A stretch of DNA of 64,000 nucleotides from Thermoleophilia bacterium (GTDB taxonomy: Bacteria > Actinomycetota > Thermoleophilia > BMS3ABIN01), in the NCBI GenBank assembly GCA_014859345.1, contig JACUUL010000003.1, forward strand, positions 4,460 to 68,459, given 5' to 3'. The first letter of the stretch is position 1. Each line of letters starts with the position of its first letter. The position numbers were made by a program, and so were the translations under genes. Below are positions 24,501 through 44,544 of this stretch, piece after piece. The notes beneath the pieces are model-generated. The model was not told where the DNA came from, searched no databases, and saw nothing but the letters and a program-made list of their open reading frames with translations.

Positions 24501-25261
24501 GGAGTCCAGGTCATCCATGATTCGTTTGCACCCCACTGGGCCCGGGAAATTACGCCGGGCTCGGCCTTCGCCTTTCCTGACTCGAACAGCCTGCCCGCCT
24601 GATTGATAAAACCAGAAAGCGATATGGACGAACTGTCGTTCAGGCCTTTGGAATCGATATAGCTGGCGGTGAGCCTGGTGACGGCGGGAGACTCGCCCAG
24701 GCCGTTGGCGGCAAGCGTCAGGCGATACTGGAAGAAACGGGCTTCGTCGACGAAGACCAGATCGCCAATGGTTTCCCCGCCTGATCTGGTCTCATCGATA
24801 TGATCGGGCAGGTCGTCATCATTAATCTCCACATCCTGCCAATCATCCCATATCTGGCCATCCCGGCTGAATCGGACCTCCGCGGAGATTCCGGCCCCCG
24901 GAGGCACCTGACCCACCCAGTGCAGGCCGATGGCGTTAAACGCGAAGTCCGCTTCCGCGGGCTCGGAAACGTACCCCCCCTCGGCCCAGGGACCGGAGGC
25001 GTCCAGGCCCAGCGCCGCTGTTTCACCGCTAAAACCCAAAACCGGCGCTTCTGCCTCTCCCGGACCGCGGCCCTTAAGCAGGGTTCCCCTGAACTGGCCG
25101 TCCGCGAACCGTCCGGCATCGGCGACGTAATTCCTCCCGATCGTCTCGGGAGGCGGCGGCTCGACAGCGCCGTATCCCGAGGAAAAAAGAAACGCCACGG
25201 AGAGGGACAGCGCCGCGGCGGCCGCGCCTACCCAATACCTTATCTTGCCGTGATAAAACAT
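21530..25261 (-). CDS. giant secreted cell-wall hydrolase: N-acetylmuramoyl-L-alanine amidase (PGRP/Amidase_2) domain, Ig-like module, four tandem beta-sandwich repeats, SpoIID/LytB domain
   Basis: Signal/anchor IRYWVGAAAAALSLSVAFLF. Amidase: ILHHTV...GWGDIGYNYLVD..G.VYEGRAGG...GHRDV.ATACPG. Repeats: [YH]YWxWYD...NWVLVAN...YEIAIAGQ...GGPV...ASQRV, four times. SpoIID: YLKGIAETSS...SVAARSYA...QVYKGYG...TPYFSRSDGRTRS. Start taken at Met18 of ORF 21530..25312. Confidence 0.75.
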   Translation of the reverse strand: MFYHGKIRYWVGAAAAALSLSVAFLFSSGYGAVEPPPPETIGRNYVADAGRFADGQFRGTLLKGRGPGEAEAPVLGFSGETAALGLDASGPWAEGGYVSEPAEADFAFNAIGLHWVGQVPPGAGISAEVRFSRDGQIWDDWQDVEINDDDLPDHIDETRSGGETIGDLVFVDEARFFQYRLTLAANGLGESPAVTRLTASYIDSKGLNDSSSISLSGFINQAGRLFESGKAKAEPGVISRAQWGANESWMTWTPQYQAPKKIILHHTVTQNWDPDPPATVRSIYYYHAVSLGWGDIGYNYLVDWRGNVYEGRAGGAGAPFSQSVIAGHARGWNAGTIGISAMGNYQEMDITTATHNALVDLMTGKSNTYYIFPLGNDYMNGVYLPNYLGHRDVNATACPGHYLYQRLPAIRSAAAAQFRYKPEIANTRPAGDNQAANKRPLLYADIAGSGIAPSSTVVKLDGVDVSAGSTRRQNYASYRPPEPLDAGPHTVYMKVSNSWGESKEASWTFNVSQNSNNPRDYYWSWYDGINSRNWVLMANPVSSEDDSYFDLYIAGRYMDLTPFAVSDGLCPGLCGSVRAGKGKTIAPSYAGYMGGPVNAASLTGAKAITSQRVLWGKNSFDEVPGIDAGKLSSHYYWPWYDQLSSGYTNWVLVANQNNRSVFYEIAIAGQLVASGTIAAGGNATPTFPGVMGGPVEVKAWTDSGKGTPARVIASQRVLSNGGEAFNEQPGIPVEDLSERYLWTWYDQASAAATNWVLVANHNDFAIRYEIRIAGQVPPGGTGTLQPGGRVTPTFPGSMGGPVELRTYRVSDDSPAKSIASQRVIWGPSFEEVPGMPWGKLSHTYHWTWYDHSSAGASNWVLVSNPGGAPVYYEIAIAGQLRQSGTLGPGGNVTPVFPGTMSGPVQVQAWTDSGKGIPAGILASQRVVWNGHFNELTGTVLEGEGTAPTTAPAATVTANSDFHVNDGYGNLVVTLPAGQTASVDYDGGTYSLLTSTGFAHGGSSYYRMAPAAGGIMQVTSYNDVPTWNQSLNDNRFRGAIEVRYSPVSNRVWVVNDLPVESYLKGIAETSSGSPAELLKTMSVAARSYAIWHLDRGGKHGSSEIFHLKNSRFGNGDDQVYKGYGLEARFPDLVAAVNGTAGEVVTYGGQVAITPYFSRSDGRTRSAQEAGWGSSWPWLQSVPDPDCNGMTLLGHGVGLSGYGAYKRAERGDSYTTILGYYYTDTAVQPVNTQRNIRIAITSVAP
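22448..23704 (-). repeat. intragenic tandem repeat, four units of about 105-115 codons, inside the amidase/SpoIID gene
   Basis: The protein repeats begin near codons 537, 651, 757 and 861. DNA-level similarity shows in near-identical antisense ORF translations ending ...SWPAIAIS at 22649 and 23276, 627 nt (two units) apart. Confidence 0.8.
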
Positions 25262-25521
25262 CGTTAAGTGTTCCTCATCATCTACTCTAGAGACGGCCTC
25301 ATGCAACTGCAATGGGAGGAATATTAAAATCTTTCCAATTCTTGTTCGTCGTTCCCGGCAGTTCGATTCCGCTTCTGTTTAGGGGTTGCCGGGAACCCTC
25401 CCTCTGGAAACAATAATCAACGAGGGGCTAAGAAGGAAATTTATGCAAAACCCTGCCATTTCCTGCCAATTGGTGATTTCCGGCTTGTTACCCTTGCCTG
25501 TAAGTCTGTAGGATTTAGACC

Positions 25522-26631
25522 ATGAGAATAGGAATCGAAGGCCTGCCTTTGCTTTTCCACCGGACCGGCACGTCGACGTACACGCACGAACTGGTCCAGA
25601 ACCTGAGGCGGCTGCACAAGGATGATACGGTCGTCCTTTTCGCCAGGAACCAGCGCGGCGCGGGGGATTCCTATCACAAGATCTCCTATGCCGAAAGAGC
25701 TCTTAATCTTTTCTATAAGGAATATCGTCTTCCTCTTGAGCTGGGCAGCGAGCGGATTGACATCTATCATTCCCCCCGGGACATGGGTTTGCCCTCTCCC
25801 AAACGGGTGGCGTGCCCCTGCCTGATGACCCTGCATGACGTGGTCCTGGTGCGTCTGGCCCGGGATTATTACAGCCGGGCGCACGCCCGGATCTACGAAA
25901 GCAGGTTGCGCAAGCGGCTGGAGACGGCGGATCATATCATCACCGTTTCTGAATTTTCGCGGAACGACATCCTGGACTGGTCGGGCATCGATCCGGACAA
26001 GGTGAGCGTTGTCCATAATGGAGTTTCGGGAAAATTCGGCCCGGTGACCGATGAGGCCGCCCTGGAGGAAGTGCGCCGGCGTTACGGCCTGCCGCGGCGC
26101 TTCATCCTGTCCCTCGGCTCTACGGAGCCGCGCAAGAACATCACCCGCGCCATCCAGGCCTACAGCGAGATCAGGCGGATGGAGCCCGGAACCGGCCTGG
26201 TGGTGACCGGGGTCGATTACAGCGGCGTCCAGCCCCGTAAGGCGTTTTCCGGGCTGCCCATGGAAGGCGTCAATTTTTCCGGCTATATCAGCGATACAGA
26301 CATGCCGGCGCTCATCAGCGCGGCGGAGATCCTGTTTTTCCCGTCCCTGTACGAGGGGTTCGGGTTGCCGCCCCTGGAGGCGATGGCCTGCGGCACCCCT
26401 GTAGTGACCTCCAATACAACCTCGATCCCCGAGATGGTGGGAGACGCGGCTGTGATGGTGGACCCGGCCGATGTCGCCGGGATGGCGGCGGCCCTGGAGA
26501 TGGTGCTTAACTCGGAGGATTTACGGGCAGAGCTGGTAAAGAAAGGTTTCGAGCGCGCCACCCGCTTCAGCTGGGCGAGCACTGCGGAGGAGACCAAAAA
26601 GATCTACAAGAAAGTCGTTGATGGGAAATAG
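25522..26631 (+). CDS. GT4 (GT-B fold, family 1-type) glycosyltransferase
   Basis: FFPSLYEGFGLPPLEAMACGTPVVTSN (EX7E-type motif). Confidence 0.8.
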   Translation: MRIGIEGLPLLFHRTGTSTYTHELVQNLRRLHKDDTVVLFARNQRGAGDSYHKISYAERALNLFYKEYRLPLELGSERIDIYHSPRDMGLPSPKRVACPCLMTLHDVVLVRLARDYYSRAHARIYESRLRKRLETADHIITVSEFSRNDILDWSGIDPDKVSVVHNGVSGKFGPVTDEAALEEVRRRYGLPRRFILSLGSTEPRKNITRAIQAYSEIRRMEPGTGLVVTGVDYSGVQPRKAFSGLPMEGVNFSGYISDTDMPALISAAEILFFPSLYEGFGLPPLEAMACGTPVVTSNTTSIPEMVGDAAVMVDPADVAGMAAALEMVLNSEDLRAELVKKGFERATRFSWASTAEETKKIYKKVVDGK

Positions 26632-31328: not shown

Positions 31329-32726
31329 ATGGAACTCAGCCAATCCTTAAAGACAAGCCAGCAGGTGGCCCTGTCCCCCAGGCTCTATGAGAGCCTGAAG
31401 ATCCTGAGACTGGGCGCGCACGAGCTCGGGGAGCTGGTCAAGCAAGAGCTGAACGAAAACCCGGCCCTGGAGATGCCGGAGCCATCCGAACTCGATATTG
31501 ATCTCGAACTGGACCGCACCGCCGTCATCGAGGCAGCCGGACCCGATCTCTGGCGGGATTTGTCCTCAGCCAGCAGGACTGTGGGGCGTCGCGATCCGTT
31601 GCGGGCCGGCGCGCCTGACGTGGGCGAGCTGGCCACCACCAGAGTCAGCCTCTATGATCATTTGACCCTGCAGCTGAGGCTTCTGCGATTTCCCCGGCAG
31701 AAGCGGCGCGCCGCCCTGGCCGTGATCGGCAGCCTCGATGATGACGGCTACCTGCGAGAGCCGGTAACGGAGATAGCCGCGACCCTTGGAAGGCCGCCGG
31801 CGGAAATCGAGGCGGCGCTCGAACTGGTGCAGGGCTTCGATCCCCCGGGCATCGCCGCGCGCAGCCTGCGGGAATGCCTCGCGCTGCAACTGGCGCGATT
31901 GAACGCTGGCCCCTTGGCCCTTGAAATTGCCAGGGAGCACCTGTCCAGGGTTGCCCGTGATGACCTTGCCGGGATCGCCCGGGATCTGGGAGCGCCGGTC
32001 CCCAGGGTGAAACGGGCAATAAAACTGATTCGCAGCCTTAATCCCCGCCCCGGATCACTCTTCGATTCTGGCACGGCGGCGGCAGTGGCTGTTCCGGATG
32101 TCTATGTCAAACATGAAAGAGGCAGGATCAGCATACTGCCCAACCGCGAGATCCAGCCGCCACTGCACATCAGCCGGCTTTACCGGCAGCTCGCCGAGGA
32201 TGCAGAACAGGCTCCCGGAACAACCGATGAAGAGACCATCAGGTTTATCAGGACCAAAATCCGGGAGGCCTCCCGACTGATTCGTGATATCGACCAGCGG
32301 CGCGCCACTGTCACCCGGGTAGCGCGCGCCATCGCCGCGGCCCAGCCGGAGTTTTTCCAGAAGGGTCCGGAACACCTGCGGCCGCTCGGCCTGGATGACA
32401 TCGCCGGCCGGCTGGACGTCCATGCATCCACCATCAGCCGCGCCATCCTTGACAAGTACATGAGTACCCCTCACGGAATCTTCGAATTCCGTTATTTCTT
32501 CTCGTCGGGATATCAGGCTTGCGGTGAGGGCGGCATCGCCGCCACGGCGGTGCGAAAGAGGCTGCAAAAAATGATCGAAGAAGAGGACAAGCGCCATCCG
32601 TTATCCGACCAGGAGCTGACAGGGCTTTTAAGGAAGGAAGGGGTGCCCATCGCCCGCAGAACCGTCGCCAAGTACCGTGAGGAGATGGGGATAGCCTCGT
32701 CCCGGGTCCGCCGTAAAGAAGCATGA
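31329..32726 (+). CDS. rpoN: RNA polymerase sigma-54 factor
   Basis: N-terminal region I (LKTSQQVALSPRLYESLKILRL...ELNENPALE), HTH, and C-terminal RpoN box ARRTVAKYREEMGI. Confidence 0.9.
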   Translation: MELSQSLKTSQQVALSPRLYESLKILRLGAHELGELVKQELNENPALEMPEPSELDIDLELDRTAVIEAAGPDLWRDLSSASRTVGRRDPLRAGAPDVGELATTRVSLYDHLTLQLRLLRFPRQKRRAALAVIGSLDDDGYLREPVTEIAATLGRPPAEIEAALELVQGFDPPGIAARSLRECLALQLARLNAGPLALEIAREHLSRVARDDLAGIARDLGAPVPRVKRAIKLIRSLNPRPGSLFDSGTAAAVAVPDVYVKHERGRISILPNREIQPPLHISRLYRQLAEDAEQAPGTTDEETIRFIRTKIREASRLIRDIDQRRATVTRVARAIAAAQPEFFQKGPEHLRPLGLDDIAGRLDVHASTISRAILDKYMSTPHGIFEFRYFFSSGYQACGEGGIAATAVRKRLQKMIEEEDKRHPLSDQELTGLLRKEGVPIARRTVAKYREEMGIASSRVRRKEA

Positions 32727-34237
32727 CATCTAATTCAAATACCGTCACCGTGATTCGGGATATCGCCATGGTCGCGTCGGGGATCGCCCTGATCAGCTAT
32801 TTTCATTTCTTTCCGCTCCATCTGGAGTTCATGTCCCACGAGACCTTCCACATCCTTCTGCGCCGACTTTACTATGTTCCGATTTTCTATGCCGCCATAC
32901 GCTTTGGTCTTAAAGGCGGGGTGATCGCTTCCCTGACCGCGACAGCCCTGTTCGCTCCCCATGCGGCCAGAACCCTGGGAGGCTTCCTCGGCCCCATATC
33001 GGTAGACAACCTTTTCGATATTATCCTTTACAATGTGGTGGGTCTGACCACCGGCCTTGTTGTGGACTCGCGCCGCCGCCAGGCCCACAGATATGAAGAG
33101 GTGGTCAATCTGAACCGCGAGATCGAAGACCGGGAAACGGCCATCCGCCACATGCAGGCGTATACCCAGAGCATCCTGAGCAGTGTCAGCAGCGGCGTCA
33201 TATCGTGCGACCGCCGGGGCGTTGTAGTCACAGCCAATCCGGTCGCCCGCAGGCTGCTGGGGCTTGGAGAGGAAGATATCGTGGGCTTCCCCCTTTCCCG
33301 CGTCTTTCCCGGGCACTCGGAATTGCTGCGGGCCGCACGGCTGATCTTAAGCGGAGAGCAGAAGCGCGCCACGCTGGAAACCTGCCTTGCCATCGAGGGC
33401 AGAACCCTCACGGTGGCAGTGCGGATAACTCCTCATCTCAGCCGCGGCCGCACCGTCGGCGCCGTCATCACCCTGGAAGACCTTACCGAAGTCAAGGATC
33501 TCACGGAGCAGCTTCTGCGCGCGGACCGGCTGTCGGGTCTGGGGGAGCTGGTGGCCGGCGTGGCGCACGAGGTGAGAAATCCTTTGGGCGTCATCCGCGC
33601 CAGCGTCCAGATGCTGGACCAGGAGATGGAAACCGGCAGCGGCGCCGCCGAGCTCAACCAGGTCATGCTGCAGGAAATCGACCGCCTCGATTCGGTGGTC
33701 GGCGCCCTGCTTGACTTCGGAAGCCCATCTGAGTCACAGTTTGGGCACGTCGAGCCGGTACGGGTGCTTGACGAGGTGATGCTGCTGACCAGGCATTTCG
33801 CCCAGCAACAGGAAATAGACATCGCCGCCGGTTATCCGGCGGAACTTCCCGGCGTATGGGCCGAAGAGGACAGGCTGAAACAGGTGTTCCTGAATCTGAT
33901 ATCAAACGCGATCCAGGCCATGCCAGGCGGGGGTTCGCTAAAGGTGTCGGCAGCACCCCGAGACGGCTATCTGCGCGTGGAAGTCACGGACACAGGCGGA
34001 GGCATCCCCCCGGAGGAGCAGAAAAGAATCTTTGACCCATTCCACACCACCCGGGCCGAGGGCAGCGGGCTCGGCCTTGCCATCGTGCACCGCATCGTGG
34101 ACGCCCATAACGGTTTCATCACGGTGGACAGCGAGCCGGGCAGGGGGAGCACCTTCACGGTGGGCATACCTCTATCGGGGGCCGCGATAACAGGCACGGC
34201 CATAGACGAGCCGGCCGGGGAAGCTGACGATGACTGA
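32723..34237 (+). CDS. membrane-bound PAS-domain sensor histidine kinase (NtrB/AtoS-like)
   Basis: N-terminal TM region, PAS (ILSSVSSGVISCDRRGVVVTANP), H-box GVAHEVRNPL, N-box LNLISNAIQA, G-boxes DTGGGI and GSGLGLAIV. Its ATG overlaps the rpoN stop (ATGA). Confidence 0.85.
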   Translation: MTSNSNTVTVIRDIAMVASGIALISYFHFFPLHLEFMSHETFHILLRRLYYVPIFYAAIRFGLKGGVIASLTATALFAPHAARTLGGFLGPISVDNLFDIILYNVVGLTTGLVVDSRRRQAHRYEEVVNLNREIEDRETAIRHMQAYTQSILSSVSSGVISCDRRGVVVTANPVARRLLGLGEEDIVGFPLSRVFPGHSELLRAARLILSGEQKRATLETCLAIEGRTLTVAVRITPHLSRGRTVGAVITLEDLTEVKDLTEQLLRADRLSGLGELVAGVAHEVRNPLGVIRASVQMLDQEMETGSGAAELNQVMLQEIDRLDSVVGALLDFGSPSESQFGHVEPVRVLDEVMLLTRHFAQQQEIDIAAGYPAELPGVWAEEDRLKQVFLNLISNAIQAMPGGGSLKVSAAPRDGYLRVEVTDTGGGIPPEEQKRIFDPFHTTRAEGSGLGLAIVHRIVDAHNGFITVDSEPGRGSTFTVGIPLSGAAITGTAIDEPAGEADDD

Positions 34238-35570
34238 TTCCATACTGGTCGTCGACGACGAGAAAAACATGCGTTTCGTGGTGGGGCGCGCCCTCAGGAG
34301 CGCCGGTCACGACGTGAGCGAGGCAGCCTCGGGAGAGGAGGCCCTCCGGGCGTTAGGGAAATCGGCTCCCAGCCTGGTGCTGCTCGATCAGCGGATGCCG
34401 GGAATGGATGGGCTGGCCACCCTCAAGGAGATGAAACGGCGTCAACCGGAGTTGCCGGTGGTGATGCTCACCGCCCACGGCAACATCGAGGACGCTGTCA
34501 AGGCCATGAAGGCCGGGGCATCCGATTACCTCACCAAGCCTTTCGACGTGGAAGAGCTGAAACTGGCCGTTGAGAAGGCGCTCAAGCTCAGCTGCCTCGA
34601 GCGGCAGGTGGATTTTCTGCGCGAAGAGCTCGGCCGGGATTACGATACCTCGGGCGTTATTGGCGAGAGCGCGCAGATGCAGGAAGTCCTGGCCACGGTG
34701 CGCCGGGTTGCCGCTACGGACGCTACCGTGATGATCTATGGCGAGAGCGGCACGGGCAAGGAACTCATCGCCAGGGCCATCCATAACGGCAGCCCGCGGG
34801 CCCGGGGGCCTTTCGTCCAGCTCAGCTGCGCGGCCCTGCCGGAGACCCTTCTGGAGAGCGAGCTTTTCGGTTACGAGAAGGGCGCCTTCACCGGCGCCAC
34901 CGGTTCCAAACCGGGCCGCTTCGAACTCGCCGATGGCGGCAGCCTGTTCCTGGACGAGATCGGAGACATATCTCCGGCGGTGCAGGTCAAGCTTCTGCGC
35001 GTCCTGGAAACCATGACATTCGAGCGCCTGGGATCCAACCAGACCGTCAGCGTCGACGTGCGACTCATCGGCGCCACCAACAGAGACCTGCCTCGGTTGA
35101 TAAGCGAAGGAGGATTCCGCGAGGACCTTTATTACCGCCTGAACGTGATCCCTGTCTGCATGCCGCCTCTGCGGGACCGGCCGGGGGACATCAAGCTGCT
35201 GGCCAAGCACTTCCTGGCCAGGCACGCTCCCGGCAAGGATCTGTCTCCGGAGGCCCTCCGGCATCTGGAGGATTACCGCTGGCCCGGCAACGTGCGCGAG
35301 CTGATCAACACGATCGAACGCGCCGGCATCTTAAGCCCCGGGCCTGTTATCGGCCCCGGTGATTTGCCGGCCGAGGTGCGGGCGGGAACATCGCCGGCCG
35401 CGGGCGGCTTCGAGCTCCCCCCGGAGGGCGTGACCCTGGAGCAGGTGGAGAAAGAGCTCATCGAACAGGCGCTGGCGCGCACCGGCGGCAACCGTACAAA
35501 GGCCGCCGGCCTGCTGGGCATAAGCCGCCATACGTTGCTTTACCGCATCGAGAAATATCATATTGGCTGA
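34230..35570 (+). CDS. sigma-54-dependent response regulator (NtrC-family bacterial enhancer-binding protein)
   Basis: Receiver ([13 protein letters not shown]), AAA+ domain with GESGTGKE Walker [16 protein letters not shown] (GAFTGA loop), and C-terminal Fis-type [23 protein letters not shown]. Overlaps the kinase gene by 8 nt. Confidence 0.9.
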
Positions 35571-35666
35571 TTATGTCTTTCTTGACGCCTAAAAGAGAAA
35601 CAGGTAACCTGAGGAAACCCGCATGGATAAGTTCAGTTTCACCACCAGGATCCTAAAAAAGCTGAA

Positions 35667-36869
35667 ATGAAACGACTCGGACTCCTCTATCTGGCTGCGC
35701 AGAATCTGAAACGCAAGCCTTTTCGCAGTTTCGTTACCATTGCCATCGTCGGCCTCGCTGCCGGAACCCTGTTTTCCGCGACCCTGCTGGTCAAGAGCGT
35801 CGACCGCAGCCTGGAGGTGGGCCTGGAGCGTCTGGGAGCCGACGTCATGGTGATGCCCGAGGGCTCCCAGGAGCCGGGCGAGGCGGCTCTGCTCACCGGC
35901 TCGCCCACCAGTTTTTACATGGAGGAATCCGTCCTGGACCAGGTGAGGGCCGTGCCAGGAGTCTCGCAGGCATCTCCCCAGCTCTTTATCGAAACACTGG
36001 TCTCTTCCCAGTGCTGCACTGGTTATTTGCAGCTGGTCGGTTACGAACCGGCCACCGATTTTGTGGTGGAGCCCTGGCTCAGGCAGAATCTGAACAGGCC
36101 GCTGGAAGAGGATGAGGTGGTGGTCGGCTCCCTCATCCTGGCCAACAAGGGCGAACACGTTCACTTCTATGGCAAGGACTTCAGCGTGGCCGGTGTGCTC
36201 GACACAACCGGAATGGGCGCCGACGAAAGCGTCTTTCTGAGACTTGATGACGCCTACGAGATGGCCGTGGAGTCCGCCGCCGTGGCAGACGACGAACTGC
36301 TGATAACTCCCGGACAGATCTCCTCGGTGCTGGTCAAGATTGATCGGGACACGAACAGTGATCTGGTGGCCCAGCGCATCCGCACCGGCGTCGCCGGAGT
36401 TTCTGTCATAACGGCCGACGACCTTTCCCGCAGCGTGACCGACCGGATCTCCGGCTTCAAGCGCGGGTTCATCGCGCTGGATGCCATCGTCTGGGTGATG
36501 TCTCTGCTGACAATCGCCGCTATCTTTTCCATGATTGTCAATGAGCGGCAGCGGGAGATCGGCCTCATCCGCGCCATGGGCGGCACCCGCAATTTCATCT
36601 TCAGGCTGATGCTGGCCGAGGCGCTGTTGCTTACCGCAATCGGCGGGGCTGCCGGCGTCTTCCTGGGCGGCTCCGCCCTGTTCATTTTCAAGACGGTAAT
36701 CACAAGCAGCCTGGGTATTCCGTACCTCTGGCCTCCGATGTGGTACTTTGGGTCTATGATAGGCGGTACGCTGATGCTGTCCGTGGCCACCGGAGCCATT
36801 GCGTCGCTGTATCCGGCCCTCAGCTCCAGCCGTCTGGAGCCCTATCTGGCCATCAGGCGGGGAGAGTAA
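35667..36869 (+). CDS. MacB/FtsX-type ABC transporter permease
   Basis: One N-terminal TM, a ~230-aa extracytoplasmic domain, then three C-terminal TMs with the FtsX-type segment ERQREIGLIRAMGGTR. Confidence 0.8.
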   Translation: MKRLGLLYLAAQNLKRKPFRSFVTIAIVGLAAGTLFSATLLVKSVDRSLEVGLERLGADVMVMPEGSQEPGEAALLTGSPTSFYMEESVLDQVRAVPGVSQASPQLFIETLVSSQCCTGYLQLVGYEPATDFVVEPWLRQNLNRPLEEDEVVVGSLILANKGEHVHFYGKDFSVAGVLDTTGMGADESVFLRLDDAYEMAVESAAVADDELLITPGQISSVLVKIDRDTNSDLVAQRIRTGVAGVSVITADDLSRSVTDRISGFKRGFIALDAIVWVMSLLTIAAIFSMIVNERQREIGLIRAMGGTRNFIFRLMLAEALLLTAIGGAAGVFLGGSALFIFKTVITSSLGIPYLWPPMWYFGSMIGGTLMLSVATGAIASLYPALSSSRLEPYLAIRRGE

Positions 36870-36872
36870 GAC

Positions 36873-37604
36873 TTGGCAACAGAACAGGAGACAATCACGA
36901 ACGTGGAAAAAGCCGGAGAGACCGAAGGCCCCGTGATAAACCTTAAGGACCTGAGCAAAACATACAAGGTAGGTCCCAACACCGTGCGCGCGGTGGAGAG
37001 CCTGAGCCTGGAAATACCACGCGGACAGATGGTGTCCATCGTCGGCCACTCCGGAAGCGGCAAGACCACCCTGCTGAGCCTGATCGGGGGCCTCACAAAG
37101 CCGAGTTCCGGCAGGGTTCTCCTGGAGGGAAACAATATCTGGAACCTGACAGACAAAGAACTTTCCCGCTTGAGAAACGAGAGGGTCGGCTTTGCCTTCC
37201 AGTTCGCCAGCCTCTTTCCTACGCTCAACGCCATCGACAACGTGCGGCTGCCGGCCACTTTTGGCAACAGCGGCGCAGCGGATGACGGAAACCGGGCCAT
37301 GGACCTGCTTGGGCTTGTGGGGCTGAAAAGCCGGGCTCATTCCTATCCCGCCATGCTCTCAGGTGGCGAACAGCGCCGGGTGGCCTTGGCCCGGACGCTC
37401 ATGAACCGGCCCCGGATAATCCTGGCCGACGAACCGAGCGGCGACCTTGACGAGGACACCGAGGCTGACATCCTGGAAATTTTCAAGCGCATAAACGAGG
37501 AGGGTGTCACCATAGTCATCGTCACCCATTCCCGCGCCGTCGCCTCACAGGCCCAGCGGATGCTCAGAATGCACCGCGGCCATCTTTTCGAGGAGCTGGA
37601 GTAA
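36873..37604 (+). CDS. MacB/LolD-type ABC transporter ATP-binding protein
   Basis: Walker A GHSGSGKTT, signature LSGGEQRRVALAR, Walker B IILADEPSGDLD. Probable TTG start. Confidence 0.85.
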   Translation: MATEQETITNVEKAGETEGPVINLKDLSKTYKVGPNTVRAVESLSLEIPRGQMVSIVGHSGSGKTTLLSLIGGLTKPSSGRVLLEGNNIWNLTDKELSRLRNERVGFAFQFASLFPTLNAIDNVRLPATFGNSGAADDGNRAMDLLGLVGLKSRAHSYPAMLSGGEQRRVALARTLMNRPRIILADEPSGDLDEDTEADILEIFKRINEEGVTIVIVTHSRAVASQAQRMLRMHRGHLFEELE

Positions 37605-37605
37605 C

Positions 37606-37944
37606 TTGCGGCTCCGGTCCGGTTTCGTAATTTCCCTGGCCACCCTGGCCGCGGCCGCCCTCCTGCTCATAGCCCTCCTGTTTATAGTCTCCTGTGGCGA
37701 AAACCGGGCCGGCCTCATCGACCAGGACCAGTACGAACGCATCCAAAGAGGCATGACCATGGACGAGGTAGAATCCATTACCGGCATCCCCACCCGGACC
37801 CACCGGACCGGGCCGGCAACTGATCCCAACATCATCTGGTACTTCGATAAGAAAGATGGCGAGGGTTTGATACGCATATCCTTCGTCGGAGGCAAAGTGG
37901 ATTCAGTGTCTCCCTTCGACCCCGGCGTGGAGCAGCAGGAATAG
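37606..37944 (+). CDS. small lipoprotein with BLIP/SmpA-OmlA-like (DUF3862-like) domain
   Basis: Signal peptide ending in lipobox IVSC, then YERIQRGMTMDEVESITGIP typical of the small BamE/DUF3862 fold. Starts 2 nt after the ATPase stop. Confidence 0.55.
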   Translation: MRLRSGFVISLATLAAAALLLIALLFIVSCGENRAGLIDQDQYERIQRGMTMDEVESITGIPTRTHRTGPATDPNIIWYFDKKDGEGLIRISFVGGKVDSVSPFDPGVEQQE

Positions 37945-38045
37945 AACCTGGGCAGCTTCGCCTCGTTTCACCGAAAACTCATTTCTTCCCGTTCATCATG
38001 ACTGATCCTGCATTTCAGCAGTCAGGAATTCCCCGGGCTTGACGT

Positions 38046-38093
38046 GGCATCTCACACAATGCCTGTGGCAAAAAACGCATCTGCGGCCGATGC
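38046..38093. promoter_or_regulatory. two dyad-symmetric elements, candidate enhancer (UAS) for the NtrC-type activator
   Basis: GGCAT-N8-ATGCC (38046-38063) and GCATC-N7-GATGC (38077-38093). Their centres are about 30 bp apart, and they lie about 125-170 bp upstream of the -24 element. Confidence 0.3.
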
Positions 38094-38217
38094 TGGGCAG
38101 CCCCTAAAAGTAAAACGCCTGAAAAAGATCTCTTTCTGGCTCCCGGCCGATAAAATCCCCTCCAAAATAGCCCTTTTTAAAATTTGGGCGCCAGCTCTGC
38201 CAGGAGAGATTCCCCAT

Positions 38218-38233
38218 TGGCACGCCAATTGCT
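38218..38233 (+). promoter_or_regulatory. sigma-54 (-24/-12) promoter
   Basis: TGGCACGCCAATTGCT matches TGGCACG-N4-TTGCW at every conserved position, with GG-N10-GC spacing. It lies about 45 bp upstream of the ATG at 38279. Confidence 0.8.
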
Positions 38234-38278
38234 GCATTACATGTGGATAACTGTATTCCCCTGATTTCAACGTCGACC

Positions 38279-39358
38279 ATGGTAAAACAGAATGGCGGTA
38301 TCATAATCCTGTTTTTCGGAGCTGCAGTCTTGCTGGCAGCAGGCTTGTTCCTGGGCGTCCCCACAGCCGACATCCACCCCGGCGACGGCCATGCAGCCGT
38401 GGCGCTGGGAAGCCCGCTGAAAATCAGCTCATCTCCCTTTGCCAGGATTGGAAAAATCGCCGTCTATGCCGACGGGCAGCTCCTGGACATGGAGTACAAC
38501 CTTGGAACCGGAGACCTCACCCGCGACCTGGAAATCCGTCCGGGTCAGCAGGTGCGCGTGGAAGCCAAGGTGGCTTCACTCATCGGCCTTACCCGGGAGT
38601 TCACCTCCACTTTCACCACCGTGCCGCCATTGAAGATCGAATCGATGCGGGTGGACGGAGTCCCGTACGCTCCCGGAGACAGGATTCCGCCGCAACCGAC
38701 CCTGGCGTTCTTCTTTAGCAAGCCGGTCATCGAGGCCGCGGTTTCGCTGGATGGCAGCGAACCCATCGAGCTGGAGATCGATCCAGACGACGCCACTCTG
38801 GCTACCTTTCACCCGGTCGTCTCTTACAGGCAAGGGGCTACCTATGTGCTGGACATCACCGCCACTGCGGTGGACACGGCCACGCTCGAGCCTCTTCAGG
38901 TCCGCGCCAGCGTGGTGCCGCCACTTTCCCTTTACGGCCGCGTCGAGGAGGGGGATGGCGGCGTCATCATCGAGCTGAACGCAAACACTCCCTTCGCCGA
39001 TCCGGAAGCTGTCATGGCGGCGCTGGAAACCAACCTGCCCGGCGCCGGCATTTCGGTAGAGAGGCAGAGGATAATCATCTCCTGCCCGGGCCTCGACCCT
39101 GGCAGCGAGTATGACATAAAGCTCGCCAGTGCCGACGGCGCCAACGGCAGCTTTCTGGAAGCTCCGCTGGCCATGACTCTGAGCTTTAAGGCACAGCCTG
39201 CCCCGAGTGCCGGCGGTTATGTCTCCACTGGCTTTTATACCGGTTATGTCTATAACGCGGGCGGACCGGGCACGGGAGCCTCCGTTGCCGCCCAGGCAGG
39301 CCCGGAATCGGGCCCGCCTCCGGGCTGGCCCGACTGCTGTCCCTGGCCGCCACAATAA
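38279..39358 (+). CDS. N-terminally anchored extracytoplasmic protein with Ig-like (SbsA/Big_5-like) modules and a Gly/Tyr-rich tail ending in CC
   Basis: TM anchor GGIIILFFGAAVLLAAGLFLG, beta-rich modules, and C-terminus ...GGYVSTGFYTGYVYNAGGPG...PPPGWPDCCPWPPQ. ATG at 38279 chosen because ORF start 38243 would sit on top of the promoter. Confidence 0.6.
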   Translation: MVKQNGGIIILFFGAAVLLAAGLFLGVPTADIHPGDGHAAVALGSPLKISSSPFARIGKIAVYADGQLLDMEYNLGTGDLTRDLEIRPGQQVRVEAKVASLIGLTREFTSTFTTVPPLKIESMRVDGVPYAPGDRIPPQPTLAFFFSKPVIEAAVSLDGSEPIELEIDPDDATLATFHPVVSYRQGATYVLDITATAVDTATLEPLQVRASVVPPLSLYGRVEEGDGGVIIELNANTPFADPEAVMAALETNLPGAGISVERQRIIISCPGLDPGSEYDIKLASADGANGSFLEAPLAMTLSFKAQPAPSAGGYVSTGFYTGYVYNAGGPGTGASVAAQAGPESGPPPGWPDCCPWPPQ

Positions 39359-39363
39359 ACACC

Positions 39364-41796
39364 GTGAACCAGTACCGGAAAAAACATAATTTTTATGCAG
39401 CTCTTCTGTCACTTTCATTGGCCCTGTCCATGCTGGCGGCTGTGGCTCCCGCTGCCTTGCTGGCGGAGAACAGCCAGTCGGCGGCGAGCGCCTACGGAGC
39501 GCCTGCCCAGCCCGCTTCCGGCGGCGGTTCCGGGGAACAGGCAGGCGCCTTCCCCGTCGCCGGCGGCGACCCCGCGCCAGCTCCCGCGGCGCCGATGTTC
39601 ATGGCGGCAGCCGCGACTCCACAGGCAGCGGACACGGTCGCTCCCGTGATAACCGGCCTGACGCCGCCGGACGGGACCGTCACCGGCCCCACCGTTTTCA
39701 TCAGCGCCAGCTACAGCGATCCGGAGCCGTCGAGCGGCATAAACACCGCCACCGCCATGATTCATATCGACGACAGGCATCAGTACGGCTGCACCATCAC
39801 CGGGTCCGGCATCTCTCTCCTGAAAACCGGGTTGTCGGAAGGCCCTCATAAAATTGAGGCATTTATCTGCGACAAAAATTACAACTGCGCCGTCTCCGCC
39901 TGGCACATCACCGTGGACGCCACCGGGCCGGTTATTTCCGGCAGCCAGCCCACCGGCACCATCAACAGCAAGGATACGGTCATTTCCTCCTTTTTTAGCG
40001 ATGAAGATGGCGCCGGAGTCGACCCCGACTCGGCCGAGGTTTTGGTTGACGGAGAGAACATCACGGCTGGCTGCCAGGTCACGGCCGGGGGCATCGCCTG
40101 CCCGGCCACCGGCCTGGGCAACGGGGAGCATCACGTCCGGGTCTCTGTCTCTGACCTCGTGGGCAACCGCTCGTCCGGCAGCTGGAGCTTCAGCGTCAAC
40201 ACCGCCGCCATCGGCGTAACCGGCCAGTATCCGGTTCCCGGCAGCTGGACCAGAAACAGCATGCCGGCTGTCGGAGCCATCTTCCAGCAAGCGGGAACGG
40301 GAATCATAGACGTGTCATCCATTACCCTGTTGATTGACGGAGTTGATGTCAGCACCACCGCGGAGCGCCATGCTGGCGGAGTCAGGTACACCCCTTCTCC
40401 TCAAGAGCTTGCCGAGGGGTGGCATGCGGTCAGCCTGACCGTCGGCGATGATGAGGGATACGTGGGCCAGAGCGAGTGGTCCTTTGCCATCGATACCATC
40501 GCGCCCGTGATCAGGAACGTGGCGCCGACGGGGCTTACCACCAGCCTGCCATCTGTCTCCGCGTCATACTCCGATGATGGCAGCGGCATGGACCTGGCCA
40601 GCATCGACCTCATCATCGATGGCTTGAATGTGACCGGCTCAGCGACTGTCACTGCGGACAGCATCACCTACGTACCGCACGAAAGCTTTGCTTCAGGGCC
40701 GCACAACGCTCAGCTGTCAGTCCGGGACCTGGCCGGCAATCTGCAGGTTTCTGCCTGGAGCTTCAGCGTTCCGGCGCAGGGGCCGGTCTTCCAGCCTCCT
40801 TTACGGCAAACGAACCCCGGCCCATCTGTAACTGCCGTTACTGAATACTGGCTGAGCTACATCAATTTGCCGTTTTCGAGCGGAGGAAGTTGGGTCCTCT
40901 CCGGCTTTCATACTTTCCCGGCCACGTACTTTCTGCCCTGGTACGGCGCGGACCCGGCCGCGGGTGTGGACGGGCAGGAGATCGTCATCACGAACCGGGG
41001 GGCGGGGGAAGCATCCGTTTACGTGCTGGTGAGCGGCGAGAACGTATGGGAAGAAAAACTGGCCGAGGGCGGGACATCCGTGTGCCGGCTACCCGGCATC
41101 TCAGGCGGCCCGGTCAAGATCATCAGCCCCACGGGGAACCAGCTGGAAGTGGTAAGCAGGACGGCCGCCCGCGGCGGCGTCAGCGAAAGTCCGGCGGTGG
41201 CGCAGGAGGACCTGGAGCCTGTTCTGCTGATGCCCTGGTTTGAATCGCTGCCGGCGAGCACCGGCAGATCGACTCTCATAGTTGCCAATGCGGGCAGCGA
41301 AGAAGCATTGGTCGAGTTATATGTCGGCGACCCGGCGCTTGCCGAATCTCTGCGGGGCAGCCTTACTATCGGACCCGAAGCGGCAGTCGAGACGGAACTG
41401 CCCGGCGTCAGGAGTGGTCCGGTCAGGATAGAAAGCACCAACGGCCAGCCTCTGACAGCGGTTTACCGGGAAACCGCTCCGGATTCCTACTACGAAGCTC
41501 TCGCCACCGGTTTCTCCCGGCTTAATGACAGCTACCGCCTCGAGCCGGGCTCCGGAGAGCCGGCCAGGGGAAGAAAGCTGGTGCTGGGCAACGGCAATGA
41601 CGTGGACAAGCGAGCCTTTGTCAGCATCGGCGGTGAGCCGCTTGATGATCCGGAAAACCCCGGTGAGGAATTCATCGTCGTGCCCCGCCACGGCGTCCGG
41701 ATTCTGGAAATCCCCGGAGATTTCTCCCGGCCTGTGCTGATCAAATGCGAGGATTGCAAGCTCGGCGAAGGCCTGTCTCCGGGATTCAGGCGCTAA
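39364..41796 (+). CDS. secreted 810-aa protein: about four Ig-like modules followed by three beta-sandwich repeats related to those of the amidase/SpoIID protein
   Basis: Signal peptide LLSLSLALSMLAAVAPAALLA. Repeated modules of the form D..AP.I....P.G......ISASYSD..SG.D..S....IDG..V........I.Y.P...L..G.H.....V.D.AGN.....WSFSV. C-terminal units FLPWYG...ITNRG...GGPVKI and LMPWFE...VANAG...SGPVRI. GTG start. Confidence 0.65.
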   Translation: MNQYRKKHNFYAALLSLSLALSMLAAVAPAALLAENSQSAASAYGAPAQPASGGGSGEQAGAFPVAGGDPAPAPAAPMFMAAAATPQAADTVAPVITGLTPPDGTVTGPTVFISASYSDPEPSSGINTATAMIHIDDRHQYGCTITGSGISLLKTGLSEGPHKIEAFICDKNYNCAVSAWHITVDATGPVISGSQPTGTINSKDTVISSFFSDEDGAGVDPDSAEVLVDGENITAGCQVTAGGIACPATGLGNGEHHVRVSVSDLVGNRSSGSWSFSVNTAAIGVTGQYPVPGSWTRNSMPAVGAIFQQAGTGIIDVSSITLLIDGVDVSTTAERHAGGVRYTPSPQELAEGWHAVSLTVGDDEGYVGQSEWSFAIDTIAPVIRNVAPTGLTTSLPSVSASYSDDGSGMDLASIDLIIDGLNVTGSATVTADSITYVPHESFASGPHNAQLSVRDLAGNLQVSAWSFSVPAQGPVFQPPLRQTNPGPSVTAVTEYWLSYINLPFSSGGSWVLSGFHTFPATYFLPWYGADPAAGVDGQEIVITNRGAGEASVYVLVSGENVWEEKLAEGGTSVCRLPGISGGPVKIISPTGNQLEVVSRTAARGGVSESPAVAQEDLEPVLLMPWFESLPASTGRSTLIVANAGSEEALVELYVGDPALAESLRGSLTIGPEAAVETELPGVRSGPVRIESTNGQPLTAVYRETAPDSYYEALATGFSRLNDSYRLEPGSGEPARGRKLVLGNGNDVDKRAFVSIGGEPLDDPENPGEEFIVVPRHGVRILEIPGDFSRPVLIKCEDCKLGEGLSPGFRR

Positions 41797-41857
41797 ATTT
41801 ACATGCTGCCGGCTCATGCCGCAAGGAACTTAAATCTGAACAGGAGGATGTGAGGGA

Positions 41858-43162
41858 ATGAAAGGAAACAGGCTTTTACTCAAGACGATTTTGCTGATCG
41901 CGGCGCTGGGAATCGCAGCTGCGTCTTTCACCGCCGCAGCCGGCGCCACCGACGATGTGACCCCACCGGTGGTCACCAGCGTCGTGCCTGCCGATGGCAG
42001 CACCATTTACACCAACGGTGATTCTACCATCTATTACCAGCTTGGCAATCCAACCCCCATGACCATCAGGGCCGAGTACAGTGACGAGCCCGGCGGCAGC
42101 GGCGTCGACACGGATAGCGTCATGGTCCATCTGGATATAGCCAACATGCTTTACGACTGTCCCGTCTGGACGGACGCCGAGATCGCCTGCAACGCGACCG
42201 CGGCCGACCTGGCTCCGGGGCTGCACCCGCTCGATATTTATGTTTTTGACCTGGCCGGCAACCCAACCGTGCATCGCACCTGGTTCACGGTTGCCGTCGA
42301 TGACGAGACGCCCTCTTATGCCAACTTGTCGCCGGCGGACGGCAGCATCATCTACACGTCCGAGCTGAACAGCGCCGGCAACAACGATATGGACGCCCTG
42401 CGCGTAGAATACGATGTCATCGATCCGGAGCCGTCCAGCGGCGTAAACCCGATGAGCCATGTCAATGACAGCTTTCCGCCCGGCGTGTCCGGCGCCATGA
42501 TCTCGAACACGTCCTGTGTGAAAAACCCCGACGCCGATAATCCGGTTCACTATTCGTGCCAGTTAAACAGGGCCAGGTTGCTTCAGCTGGGCGAAAACCA
42601 GCTCTCGGTCCTGCTAAAGGACAGGGTGGGCAACAACAACCACGAGGATCCCTCGAGCCTGAACACCTACACTGTGATTGACGACGTCGAGCCGGTTGTC
42701 AGCGACATCGCCGCGGACGAGACCGCCATCAGCGCCTCCTTCAGCGACCCGCTGCCTGACGGAGCCCTCTCCACCCTGCTGGCCAGCGGCATCGATACGG
42801 ATACCGCGAAGATTCTTGTCGACGACGCCATGATCACGGAAGGCTGCACGGCCACGGAGACGGGGATCAGCTGTCCCACGCCCACGGAGCTGCCTGACGG
42901 TACGTACGACATCGAGGTGATGGTTTCCGATAACGACGGAAACCAGGGCCTGGGCGCCGGCACGCTGAGCATCGGAGCGCCTTCCTGCACTCCGGGAAGC
43001 CCGGCCTGGGCCTGCGTCACTGGAACGCCTACTGGGCCTCACTGGCCGATTACGAGGCGAGGCTGCTTTCGGTGCCGTTCAGGGTCGTCAACTTCGGTGC
43101 TACCGCCGCCGCCGGTGTACAGTTCACTTCGAGCGCGCCCGGCGCCGGTGTCGAGCTGGTGA
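41858..43162 (+). CDS. secreted Ig-repeat protein, apparently frameshifted near 42994
   Basis: Signal peptide LLKTILLIAALGIAAASFTAAAGA, then about four modules of the same type as the 810-aa protein, each with a Cys pair. The last ~55 codons (PSCTPGSPAWACVTGTPTGPHWPITRRGCFRCRS...) look like out-of-frame translation. Confidence 0.6.
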   Translation: MKGNRLLLKTILLIAALGIAAASFTAAAGATDDVTPPVVTSVVPADGSTIYTNGDSTIYYQLGNPTPMTIRAEYSDEPGGSGVDTDSVMVHLDIANMLYDCPVWTDAEIACNATAADLAPGLHPLDIYVFDLAGNPTVHRTWFTVAVDDETPSYANLSPADGSIIYTSELNSAGNNDMDALRVEYDVIDPEPSSGVNPMSHVNDSFPPGVSGAMISNTSCVKNPDADNPVHYSCQLNRARLLQLGENQLSVLLKDRVGNNNHEDPSSLNTYTVIDDVEPVVSDIAADETAISASFSDPLPDGALSTLLASGIDTDTAKILVDDAMITEGCTATETGISCPTPTELPDGTYDIEVMVSDNDGNQGLGAGTLSIGAPSCTPGSPAWACVTGTPTGPHWPITRRGCFRCRSGSSTSVLPPPPVYSSLRARPAPVSSW

Positions 43163-43314
43163 CGCCGGTGCCGCATCCCGTGGGTGACATCCCGGCGGGA
43201 GATACGGCTGATGCCACCCTGGTATTCCAGGTGCCCCAGGGCACGGCCAGCTTTCGCACCGCCAACACCGCCAGCGCCGAGGATACTTGCGGCAATTTGT
43301 ATCAGTATCCGTAA
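43072..43314 (+). CDS. probable displaced C-terminal domain of the preceding gene, in a different frame (open from 42934)
   Basis: This frame reads ...KPGLGLRHWNAYWASLADYEARLLSVPFRVVNFGATAAAGVQFTSSAPGAGVELVTPVPHPVGDIPAGDTADATLVFQVPQGTASF..., a plausible beta-sandwich domain, and overlaps the implausible tail of 41858..43162. Confidence 0.5.
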   Translation: MPFRVVNFGATAAAGVQFTSSAPGAGVELVTPVPHPVGDIPAGDTADATLVFQVPQGTASFRTANTASAEDTCGNLYQYP

Positions 43315-43346
43315 ACAGGAGCTGACGAGACACAGGAGGAACAAGA

Positions 43347-43811
43347 ATGATGAGTAAACGCAATAGCATGGCAGCCGGAGCCGGTGTCGCCGCCCTGGGG
43401 GCGCTGGTCGCCGCCACCCCCAGATATCTCTTTCCGGTATGCGAATATTTCGGCGTGCGGATGGAAATGCAGGGCAGGACAGATCACATGCACTGTTTTT
43501 ACACCGCCAGAGCCTCGCTGATGATTGGATTGATCATCGGCCTCATAGGCATAGCCCTCTTCCTCTCCCGGAGGCCGGAGACCCGGCGCCTGCTCTCACT
43601 GGTCCTGGCAGGCTCTGCCGGCGCGGTCATTCTGGTCCCAACAGCCCTGTTTACCGTATGTCAAAACCCCGACATGCATTGTAACCACGGCACCGTGCCT
43701 CTGCTCATCGTTCTCGGGATCACCACTTTGCTCTTCTCGGGATGGTTGGGACTGACCTCCCGCGCGCCCGAATCCATGGAGGAGCCCTCCCTGGCCGAAG
43801 CACTGCGCTAG
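43347..43811 (+). CDS. DUF4418-like four-TM membrane protein with conserved cysteines
   Basis: Four hydrophobic segments and two Cys-containing loops (FPVCEYFG..M.M....HMHCFYTA and FTVCQNPDMHCNHG), matching my recollection of DUF4418 proteins. Confidence 0.5.
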   Translation: MMSKRNSMAAGAGVAALGALVAATPRYLFPVCEYFGVRMEMQGRTDHMHCFYTARASLMIGLIIGLIGIALFLSRRPETRRLLSLVLAGSAGAVILVPTALFTVCQNPDMHCNHGTVPLLIVLGITTLLFSGWLGLTSRAPESMEEPSLAEALR

Positions 43812-43845
43812 CCAGTAACCAAGATCCCATCATCCGGAGCCAGCA

Positions 43846-43884
43846 GGCCCCGGCCCCGCGCGGGCCGGGGCCTCCTTTTTTTTT
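43846..43884 (+). terminator. rho-independent terminator
   Basis: Perfect 11-bp GC stem GGCCCCGGCCC / GGGCCGGGGCC with a 5-nt loop, followed by TCC and a run of nine T, 35 nt after the stop of the DUF4418-like gene. Confidence 0.85.
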
Positions 43885-44094: not shown

Positions 44095-44544
44095 GTGGCG
44101 AAACCAACCAACAAAAGCGATGCCGGAGTGGACTACTTCATACAGCGGGTCGTCTTCTCCGAAGGCCAGGTACTGGATCTGGTCTGCTTCAAGAATGGCG
44201 TATCTACACAGAGCATCATCGAGGAAATCGTGACCGAGCTGCAGAAAAAAAAGACAGAACTGGGAACCTGCCCTCTCTGCAAATCCAGGCTGATCTATCC
44301 GATGGAGCGTTACCAGCTAAACGACCTGGAGTGGAAGGTGCTGATGCTGTGCCCTAACTGCCTGTGCAAGCGGGAGATAGTCGTCGACCGCGAAACGGTG
44401 CGGGATCTGCTCAGGACGGCGCGGATGGGCCGCGAGTCCCTGATGAACGAGCTCGACAAAATGCAGAGGAAGAACATGGAAGATGAATCGGAGAAATTCA
44501 TCTCGGCTTTGCACAAGGACCATATCCTGCCGATAGATTTTTAG
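44095..44544 (+). CDS. hypothetical zinc-ribbon protein
   Basis: Two CxxC pairs (CPLCKS...CPNCLC) followed by a charged helical tail. GTG start. No family recognised. Confidence 0.4.
   Translation: MAKPTNKSDAGVDYFIQRVVFSEGQVLDLVCFKNGVSTQSIIEEIVTELQKKKTELGTCPLCKSRLIYPMERYQLNDLEWKVLMLCPNCLCKREIVVDRETVRDLLRTARMGRESLMNELDKMQRKNMEDESEKFISALHKDHILPIDF

Follow-up and report, generated by a model that had tools for sequence, protein, structure and literature searches.

Two-component circuits of the NtrBC type (AtoSC, ZraSR, and NtrBC) pair a histidine kinase with an activator built of REC, AAA+ (GAFTGA), and HTH_8 domains, and rely on a palindromic upstream enhancer and a GG-N10-GC promoter; ZraSR is, in addition, a circuit of envelope and metal stress. 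Actinomycetota, of which Thermoleophilia is a class, were reported in two comparative studies to be devoid of sigma-54 (PMC3162934, PMC12316311), Francke et al. describing Actinobacteria as lacking the sigma-54 system (PMC3162934), and one of the two further proposed that -24/-12 promoters cannot be used in this phylum owing to its high G+C content. Here we analyze a 64,000-nt stretch of DNA (hereafter the window) from a Thermoleophilia bacterium (contig JACUUL010000003.1, assembly GCA_014859345.1), which carries at 31329-43884 (+) a block with the same kinds of regulators, enhancer, and promoter. Open reading frame (ORF) mapping and family scans confirmed ten co-oriented genes on the + strand, which encode the sigma factor RpoN, a sensor kinase, an NtrC-class activator, a MacB-type ATP-binding cassette (ABC) permease with its ATPase and a small probable lipoprotein, three exported proteins (cargo 1, cargo 2, and cargo 3), and a DUF4418 membrane protein. 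Gene content, coordinates, the -24/-12 promoter, and the terminator (Table 1) are all as described in an initial annotation of this DNA. Comparison with related loci makes it reasonably likely that the block represents an enhancer-dependent (sigma-54) regulon specific to a lineage of uncultured, Thermoleophilia-like Actinomycetota, which would operate by the mechanism proposed below.

All three sigma-54 domains of RpoN (Sigma54_AID, Sigma54_CBD, and Sigma54_DBD; PF00309, PF04963, and PF04552) scored above cutoff, as did the whole protein against TIGR02395 (402 bits, cutoff 277). The RpoN box is present (ARRTVAKYR), and residues 6-462 align with solved sigma-54 structures (257 bits). The activator yielded 120 bits for Response_reg, 239 for Sigma54_activat, and 68 for HTH_8, and contains GAFTGA, a composition that identifies it, by sequence, as a bacterial enhancer-binding protein of the NtrC class. 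Overlaps between consecutive genes (Table 1) are in keeping with the translational coupling of rpoN to kinase and activator that had been claimed initially. Membership in the AtoSC, ZraSR, or NtrBC equivalogs was rejected, as the NCBIfam scores fell short of the respective cutoffs for AtoS (341 vs 646), AtoC (515 vs 714), ZraR (431 vs 760), and NtrC (460 vs 559); the kinase was under cutoff for both the AtoS and the ZraS models.

Upstream of cargo 1, TGGCACgccaaTTGCT is the sole exact match to the promoter pattern in the 64-kb window, where 0.07 are expected by chance. With a matrix derived from 23 sites of relatives it scored 22.9 bits, against 8.6 for the next best site, which agrees with the earlier view of this operon as the only obvious sigma-54 target in the window; a search for a sigma-54 promoter upstream of rpoN in the window found none. 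The corresponding element, TGGCA(C/T)-N5-TTGCT, precedes cargo 1 in all of the related loci whose upstream region is intact (11 of 11: L002, L004, L005, L007-L012, L020, and L021), including L009, where the operon is relocated. A 16-bp palindrome with the consensus TGTGGCAT(T/A)TGCCACA lies ~130-200 bp upstream of the promoters examined in relatives, often with a weaker second site 21 bp further downstream. When the window was scanned with a matrix built from 19 sites in relatives only, leaving the window out of training, its two enhancer sites ranked first and second in 64 kb (38043, 14.5 bits; 38064, 12.6 bits; next, 8.5 bits). These sites are placed 139-175 bp upstream of the -24 element, and both the window and the relatives thus show the spacing of about 80-200 bp from the promoter that is typical of an upstream activating sequence (UAS).

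Matching enhancer palindromes also accompany two further sigma-54 promoters in L015, before genes for a PqqD-like and a C_GCAxxG_C_C protein. The presence of a single enhancer type on all these promoters implies one activator, and the adjacent NtrC-class protein is the obvious candidate for binding it. Because promoter and shared enhancer are kept wherever the upstream region of a relative is intact, even in the relocated operon, transcription of the cargo operon very probably depends on sigma-54 and, to judge from its sequence context, on the adjacent two-component activator. The initial annotation further envisaged 38279-43811 as one sigma-54 transcript. The cargo genes of relatives, however, form two sigma-54 units, a second sigma-54 promoter preceding the DUF4418/cargo 3 pair in most of them; L020, with the gene order of the window, has three sigma-54 promoters. 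The extra targets of L015 (assembly GCA_003599855.1) map to 16735-17166 and 18708-19731, and encode a 94-aa PqqD-like protein and a 275-aa, putatively redox-active C_GCAxxG_C_C protein.

The relatives also share a conserved structured leader of ~170-190 nt after the sigma-54 promoter (L002 8760-8965, L004 8732-8925, L007 4614-4815, L010 5941-6135, L020 9812-10010, and others), which contains an invariant CGGTCTGGGT. Its 12-bp hairpin, with both sides changed at 10 of the 12 pairs, carries a CTGGGGG loop, and the last of its recurring CCCCAG boxes overlaps the ribosome-binding site. The leader is absent from 38234-38279 of the window, where the TGG of the promoter is separated from the VPTA codons by 139 nt vs 249-280 nt in relatives. 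It has no Rfam match, and Rfam likewise returned none in the block or in seven related loci. These features make it a candidate translational riboregulator, lost in the window.

A sister lineage (L017 10001-15719, L018 8001-17401, and L019 8001-13864) keeps the rpoN-kinase-activator operon with its genes overlapping or closely abutting, at 40-42% identity for RpoN and 59% for the activator. There, a sigma-54 promoter directly follows the activator gene, and its targets in all three loci comprise genes for a membrane zinc-ribbon, a DsbD_TM, and an HMA protein. L018 has, in addition, a cupredoxin domain in its DsbD_TM protein and, after it, genes for a separate cupredoxin protein and for a P-type ATPase of the HMA type. 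Genes for CsoR and a cation-diffusion facilitator (CDF, Cation_efflux) lie upstream in the sister loci, joined by thioredoxin in L018 and L019. Since the operon is kept with different genes downstream, the three regulatory genes appear as a conserved core whose targets have been exchanged. Just upstream of rpoN, the sister lineage also has a conserved GGTA-N-TTTGCT, which could reflect autoregulation or a sigma-70 -10 box.

The exported proteins belong, as far as their sequences tell, to undescribed families, as first suspected. Cargo 1 is represented by only 11 clusters among 1.84 billion, five of them full length. It has an N-terminal anchor in the membrane and ends in a C-terminal tail; between the two, the AlphaFold2 (AF2) model (predicted local distance difference test, pLDDT, 78.6), with an alignment drawn from representative-library matches, places three beta-sandwich domains and a Gly/Ser linker that is disordered, the N-terminus itself being modeled as a helix. 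The best structural matches were immunoglobulin (Ig)-like stalks of mycobacterial L,D-transpeptidases (Foldseek E about 4e-8), and Pfam gave neither a YkuD nor a Big_13 match. The last 14-15 residues, GPPPGWPxCCPWPP(Q/R/E), are invariant in all orthologues and in paralogues of 28-36% identity, the Cys-Cys tail peptide being GPPPGWPPCCPWPPQ; the literature searched holds no mention of this motif. The initial annotation had seen no recognizable enzymatic or anchoring motif in the cargo proteins. Pfam and motif searches indeed detected neither SLH nor LPXTG with a following transmembrane (TM) segment in them, but in view of this tail the statement is not fully accurate. Paralogues of cargo 1 (28-32% identical) at L020 18148-19359 and L014/L022 577-1770 end in an identical PPPGWPPCCPWPPR tail, and the one in L020 has its own sigma-54 promoter and enhancer.

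Cargo 2 (AF2 pLDDT 77) has a signal peptide and a disordered linker rich in Pro and Ala; its four Big_13 domains are joined by three other beta-sandwich domains, and it ends with an invariant CxxC (C795 and C798). Foldseek retrieved generic tandem Ig arrays only, and a PDB sequence search found no match to its C-terminal 290 aa; gene callers choose a later start, giving 788 aa rather than 810. Big_13 (PF19077; cutoff 27) scored 59.6 bits in cargo 2 and 43.7 in cargo 3. The latter gene shifts frame near 42985-42995, with its C-terminal beta-sandwich domain in another frame to 43314. The secreted protein of ~485 aa described initially therefore matches the repaired length, within the range of its orthologues, but the gene in the window is frameshifted. 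Cargo 3 in the Logan contig L001 is identical in sequence to that in the window; the shift may reflect real pseudogenization, programmed frameshifting, or an error of assembly. The extracytoplasmic nature of the system, implied by the initial annotation, is supported at the level of prediction.

The permease scored above cutoff for both MacB_PCD (41 bits) and FtsX (56 bits) and has distant PDB matches to MacB (E about 1e-6), Spr0695, and YtrF. It shows the hallmarks of a MacB-type (type VII) transporter, that is, an FtsX C-terminus, a MacB core between TM1 and TM2, and an adjacent ATPase, which scored 116 bits for ABC_tran and 220 bits, under cutoff, for the LolD model. By analogy with this family, it probably works by mechanotransmission and not by transmembrane transport. 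A conserved vicinal Cys pair (SSQCCTG) marks its ectodomain, also in an archaeal homologue. The 112-aa protein encoded next has a lipobox-like sequence (...LLFIVSC) at residue 30, and its gene is kept after that of the ATPase in all relatives. An outer-membrane reading of this small protein was rejected, its BamE score (22.2 bits, cutoff 23.2) overlapping BLIP and DUF3862 matches. As for the partners of a MacAB-TolC system, Pfam scans of the ten block and ten flanking genes detected no HlyD-type or OEP family.

The protein encoded by the last gene of the block belongs to DUF4418 (PF14387; 93.2 bits vs 27) and has four predicted TM segments; in the alignment, four conserved Cys along with Met and His residues map to the two loops with a predicted outward orientation (FPVCEY, MxCYYT, and CxNPDMHCNHG). 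Scans of public genomes with a DUF4418 pattern and of metagenomes with a cargo 1 pattern yielded 8 and 3 loci, respectively. DUF4418 directly adjoins a MacB-type permease in three independent settings: an archaeal (Methanobacteriota) metagenome-assembled genome (MAG), where a permease 39% identical to that of the window is followed by a DUF4418 protein of 45% identity (L013 3813-9590), locus L016, and Bifidobacterium longum, in which the DUF4418 gene and the neighboring ABC permease gene shift expression together (PMC7701253). This recurrent adjacency indicates that DUF4418 is most likely a partner of the MacB-type permease, not cargo. Hence, of the "four cargo proteins" of the initial annotation, three are exported proteins, whereas the fourth is better read as a permease accessory. 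It is DUF4418 and the clustering of genes, and no common promoter, that link the transporter to the regulon. DUF4418, mentioned in a single paper of the literature searched, thereby gains a first functional handle. The permease/DUF4418 pair of the archaeal locus is preceded by genes for an S-layer-like protein and for a membrane protein of the polyferredoxin type.

Table 1. Features of the sigma-54 block and its downstream border in the window
Feature	Positions	Strand	Basis or remarks
rpoN (sigma-54), 465 aa	31329-32726	+	Pfam, TIGR02395, RpoN box, structure alignment
PAS sensor histidine kinase	32723-34237	+	4-nt overlap with rpoN; membrane-embedded N-terminal domain, PAS, HisKA, HATPase_c
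NtrC-class enhancer-binding protein	34230-35570	+	8-nt overlap with kinase gene; REC, AAA+ with GAFTGA, HTH_8
MacB-type (type VII) ABC permease	35667-36869	+	MacB_PCD, FtsX
ABC ATPase, LolD/MacB/FtsE type	36873-37604	+	ABC_tran
Small probable lipoprotein, 112 aa	37606-37944	+	Lipobox-like IVSC; BLIP/BamE-like domain (sub-threshold matches only)
Tandem enhancer (UAS)	38043-38079	+	CGTGGCATCTCACACA at 38043-38058, TGTGGCAAAAAACGCA at 38064-38079
Sigma-54 promoter TGGCACgccaaTTGCT	38218-38233	+	-24/-12 match
Cargo 1, anchored Ig-like protein	38279-39358	+	No Pfam or NCBIfam family
Cargo 2, 810-aa secreted Ig-repeat protein	39364-41796	+	Big_13
Cargo 3, secreted Big_13 protein, frameshifted	41858-43314	+	First frame 41858-43162 (434 aa)
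DUF4418 membrane protein	43347-43811	+	PF14387
Intrinsic terminator	43845-43873	+	12-bp stem, 11 G-C pairs, T8 run
149-aa zinc-ribbon-like protein	44095-44544	+	Closes the block in relatives; membership of the system uncertain

With promoter, enhancer, gene linkage, and motif conservation established by comparison of sequences among the loci, we propose the following mechanism. RpoN, the membrane-embedded PAS kinase, and the NtrC-class activator would be co-translated from one operon, and a membrane or envelope cue would lead the kinase to phosphorylate the activator. This regulator would then bind the tandem enhancer, consisting of TGTGGCAT(T/A)TGCCACA and the weaker site 21 bp downstream, and remodel sigma-54 RNA polymerase at TGGCAC-N5-TTGCT. 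The resulting transcript would specify three exported tandem beta-sandwich proteins, with cargo 1 as a membrane-anchored stalk ending in the invariant Cys-Cys tail, together with the DUF4418 membrane protein. We infer that DUF4418 interacts with the neighboring MacB-type transporter, which may be expressed independently, and that the products probably form an inducible cysteine-rich assembly outside the membrane. A role in surface structure or envelope stress, as the initial annotation had it, is an interpretation along the same lines.

A soft-metal (copper-like) or thiol/redox envelope stress as cue and role is put forward only tentatively; it is suggested by the targets of the sister lineage and by the Cys, Met, and His motifs of cargo 1, the permease, DUF4418, and cargo 2. 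We are similarly hesitant about the bolder version of this idea, namely a first functional sigma-54 in Actinomycetota heading a cis-linked cassette that controls a hitherto unrecognized extracytoplasmic thiol/soft-metal machine of MacB-type ABC transporter, DUF4418, and Cys-Cys Ig stalks.

Several findings weigh against the proposed regulon or parts of it. The same block occurs in eight related loci (L002, L004, L005, L007, L008, L010, L020, and L021), but in the loci reaching far enough the housekeeping flanks are conserved as well, with Dus and ABC-2 genes upstream and zinc-ribbon, Rho, transaldolase, and CpgS-like genes downstream. The zinc-ribbon protein (145-149 aa) of relatives is 71-74% and their Rho 81-90% identical to the copies in the window, the latter figure marking these relatives as close. 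Given such close relatives and equally syntenic flanks, conservation of the block proves little by itself, and the neighborhood check, although it recovered the whole block in most relatives, revealed ordinary synteny. Moreover, the block is separable. In GCA_003599855.1, L015 unites the three regulatory genes with those for the ABC transporter and the small lipoprotein, and cargo 1, cargo 2, and DUF4418 are encoded on a different contig, L009, where the relocated operon still keeps its promoter and enhancer. L016 has, beside rpoN and with no kinase or activator in between, a co-directional cluster of DUF4418, permease, ATPase, lipoprotein, a PrsA/SurA-like foldase, cargo 1, cargo 2, DUF4418, and a cargo 3-like gene, in which a canonical -24/-12 element was not found. 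Finally, L024 carries rpoN after ABC-2 genes, the rest of the block being absent there. These splits and rearrangements, along with the extra sigma-54 targets of relatives, do not sustain the earlier description of a self-contained module.

Other objections concern individual components. A sigma-54 promoter was looked for before the ABC permease gene and not found, the only candidate being a weak sigma-70-like match, TTGACG-17-TAACCT, under the scan threshold; without a sigma-54 promoter the ABC operon is not visibly part of the regulon, so that its assignment to the sigma-54 module is backed by clustering but not by a promoter of its own. The first frame of cargo 3 in the window (434 aa) is shorter than its orthologues (481-487 aa). 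No convincing metal ligands were found in the sensor region of the kinase, and the metal reading is a lead drawn from residue types and from a sister lineage with different targets. This sigma-54 may serve further genes as well, and the regulon may be larger than seen here, depending on how many activators and sigma-54 promoters the genomes have elsewhere.

Additional genes accompany the block in some relatives. In L011 and L012, a CvpA-trypsin membrane protease is inserted before cargo 1 (L011 2562-3728) and a 598-aa NHL-repeat beta-propeller protein is encoded between cargo 2 and DUF4418 (L011 7943-9739). The zinc-ribbon-like protein that follows the terminator, with CPLC...CPNC and a C-terminal HILPIDF, borders the block on its downstream side in every relative; homologues are encoded after the C_GCAxxG_C_C gene in L015 and beside rpoN in L016.

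Among other explanations, an inducible adhesin or surface coat ranks first and, though somewhat doubtful, is about as probable as the metal or redox role. Sigma-54 would then turn on Ig-repeat stalks for attachment or biofilm formation, for example on groundwater mineral surfaces; the ABC transporter and DUF4418 would aid secretion, folding, or anchoring, and the cysteines would be structural disulfides or an anchoring signal instead of metal ligands. The cargo models do resemble the tandem Ig arrays of SiiE, RTX adhesins, and an ice-binding adhesin, and cargo 1 the wall-spanning Ig stalk of L,D-transpeptidases. The foldase inserted in L016 and a large surface-glycan cluster nearby in the window are also in line with this possibility, as is the argument that sigma-54 controls the cell exterior generally (Francke et al., PMC3162934). 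However, LPXTG or SLH anchoring signals are lacking, the short CC tail is the most strongly conserved element and the Cys of DUF4418 and the permease occur alongside Met and His, a pattern more in keeping with ligands than with the stabilization of a fold, and the targets in the sister lineage are metal and thiol genes. The glycan cluster itself spans ~4000-26000 of the window, with a low-G+C core (45-50%, ~10-21 kb, vs ~60% elsewhere), and encodes several GT2 glycosyltransferases, a methyltransferase, a pyruvyl transferase, a Wzm/Wzt ABC exporter (19307-21484), a 1260-aa Amidase_2 and SpoIID wall protein (21530-25312), and a GT4 enzyme (25522-26631). Positions 1-2800 of the window are likewise low in G+C (40%) and contain an ORF for a TaqI_C-like specificity domain (8-1033) and a tRNA-Gly(CCC) (2687-2762).

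Linkage by descent only, which we regard as unlikely, would make rpoN the head of a broad regulon with the Ig-repeat operon as one local target, and the MacB-type ABC transporter an unrelated exporter of a peptide, lipoprotein, or antimicrobial caught in between. It draws on flanks that are as syntenic as the block, on L024, where rpoN lies beside Dus and ABC-2 genes alone, on the L015/L009 split, on ABC genes devoid of a sigma-54 promoter, and on the other sigma-54 targets of L015 and L020. Yet every sigma-54 promoter found in the lineage has the same enhancer, implying one activator, and the rpoN-kinase-activator operon persists in a lineage only 40% identical. DUF4418, in turn, links the sigma-54 operon with the permease family in both Bacteria and Archaea, and the ABC genes of L016 stay with the cargo genes, not with the regulators.

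The phylum of the host was addressed through the relatives, whose assignment is that of submitter labels in several separately named assemblies and isolate series. The 810-aa cargo 2 has ~22 full-length homologues of 45-53% identity, the named ones all from Thermoleophilia or Actinobacteria MAGs, and RpoN has ~57 proteins at least 45% identical, the named ones from Thermoleophilia or Gaiellales, before identity drops to ~42%. A taxonomic artefact, that is, contigs from a mis-binned or mislabelled non-actinobacterium in which sigma-54 would be unremarkable, is very improbable: the relatives are indeed all MAGs named by their submitters and a comparison of Rho with PDB sequences does not discriminate phyla, but several assemblies and isolate series are consistently Thermoleophilia, Gaiellales, or Actinobacteria, the contigs of relatives (261-398 kb) carry core genes, and the neighboring genes encode wall proteins with LGFP repeats and a CvpA-trypsin protease similar to MarP of mycobacteria, architectures that we take to be typical of Actinobacteria. 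The combination of rpoN, activator, enhancer, and discriminable promoters in a Thermoleophilia-like genome of 60% G+C is thus a counter-example to the reported absence of sigma-54 and a test case for the G+C hypothesis.

Compared with the NtrBC-type circuits, which it resembles in regulators and promoter architecture, the block differs in that rpoN is the first gene of the kinase/activator operon, the targets are next door, and the host phylum was reported to lack sigma-54 (PMC3162934, PMC12316311). This layout recalls extracytoplasmic function (ECF) sigma cassettes, where the sigma factor, signal-transducing regulators, and regulated genes are clustered as a local dedicated circuit, but the sigma factor is of another family and depends on an ATP-dependent activator instead of anti-sigma release. 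The whole circuit, from sigma factor to targets, fits within about 12 kb, a compactness that might permit its reconstitution, whether in vitro or in a heterologous host. As to the products, cargo 1 shares with mycobacterial LdtMt2 and LdtMt5 a membrane anchor followed by tandem bacterial Ig-like domains, but has no YkuD catalytic domain and ends instead in a Gly/Ser linker and GPPPGWPxCCPWPP. The transporter has the four-helix FtsX-type permease with a TM1-TM2 ectodomain and the separate LolD/FtsE-like ATPase of known MacB/type VII systems (MacAB-TolC, LolCDE, FtsEX, YtrEF, and Spr0694-0695), from which it departs by its pairing with DUF4418 and a small BLIP/BamE-like probable lipoprotein and by the vicinal Cys pair of the ectodomain. 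The likeness to CopA/CopZ, CsoR, and DsbD/CcdA operons lies in the sister lineage, which sets the rpoN-kinase-activator operon directly before such genes, and in typical soft-metal ligands, namely the conserved Cys/Met/His residues of DUF4418 and the Cys-Cys pairs that cargo 1 and the permease each carry; unlike copper operons, the block contains no recognized metal-binding domain (HMA, CopC, or cupredoxin), and the likeness is a lead, not membership. Set against these systems, the novelty of the locus resides in its host phylum, its cassette-like layout, and two uncharacterized families, one being the stalk protein with its CC tail and the other DUF4418, paired with a MacB-type partner.

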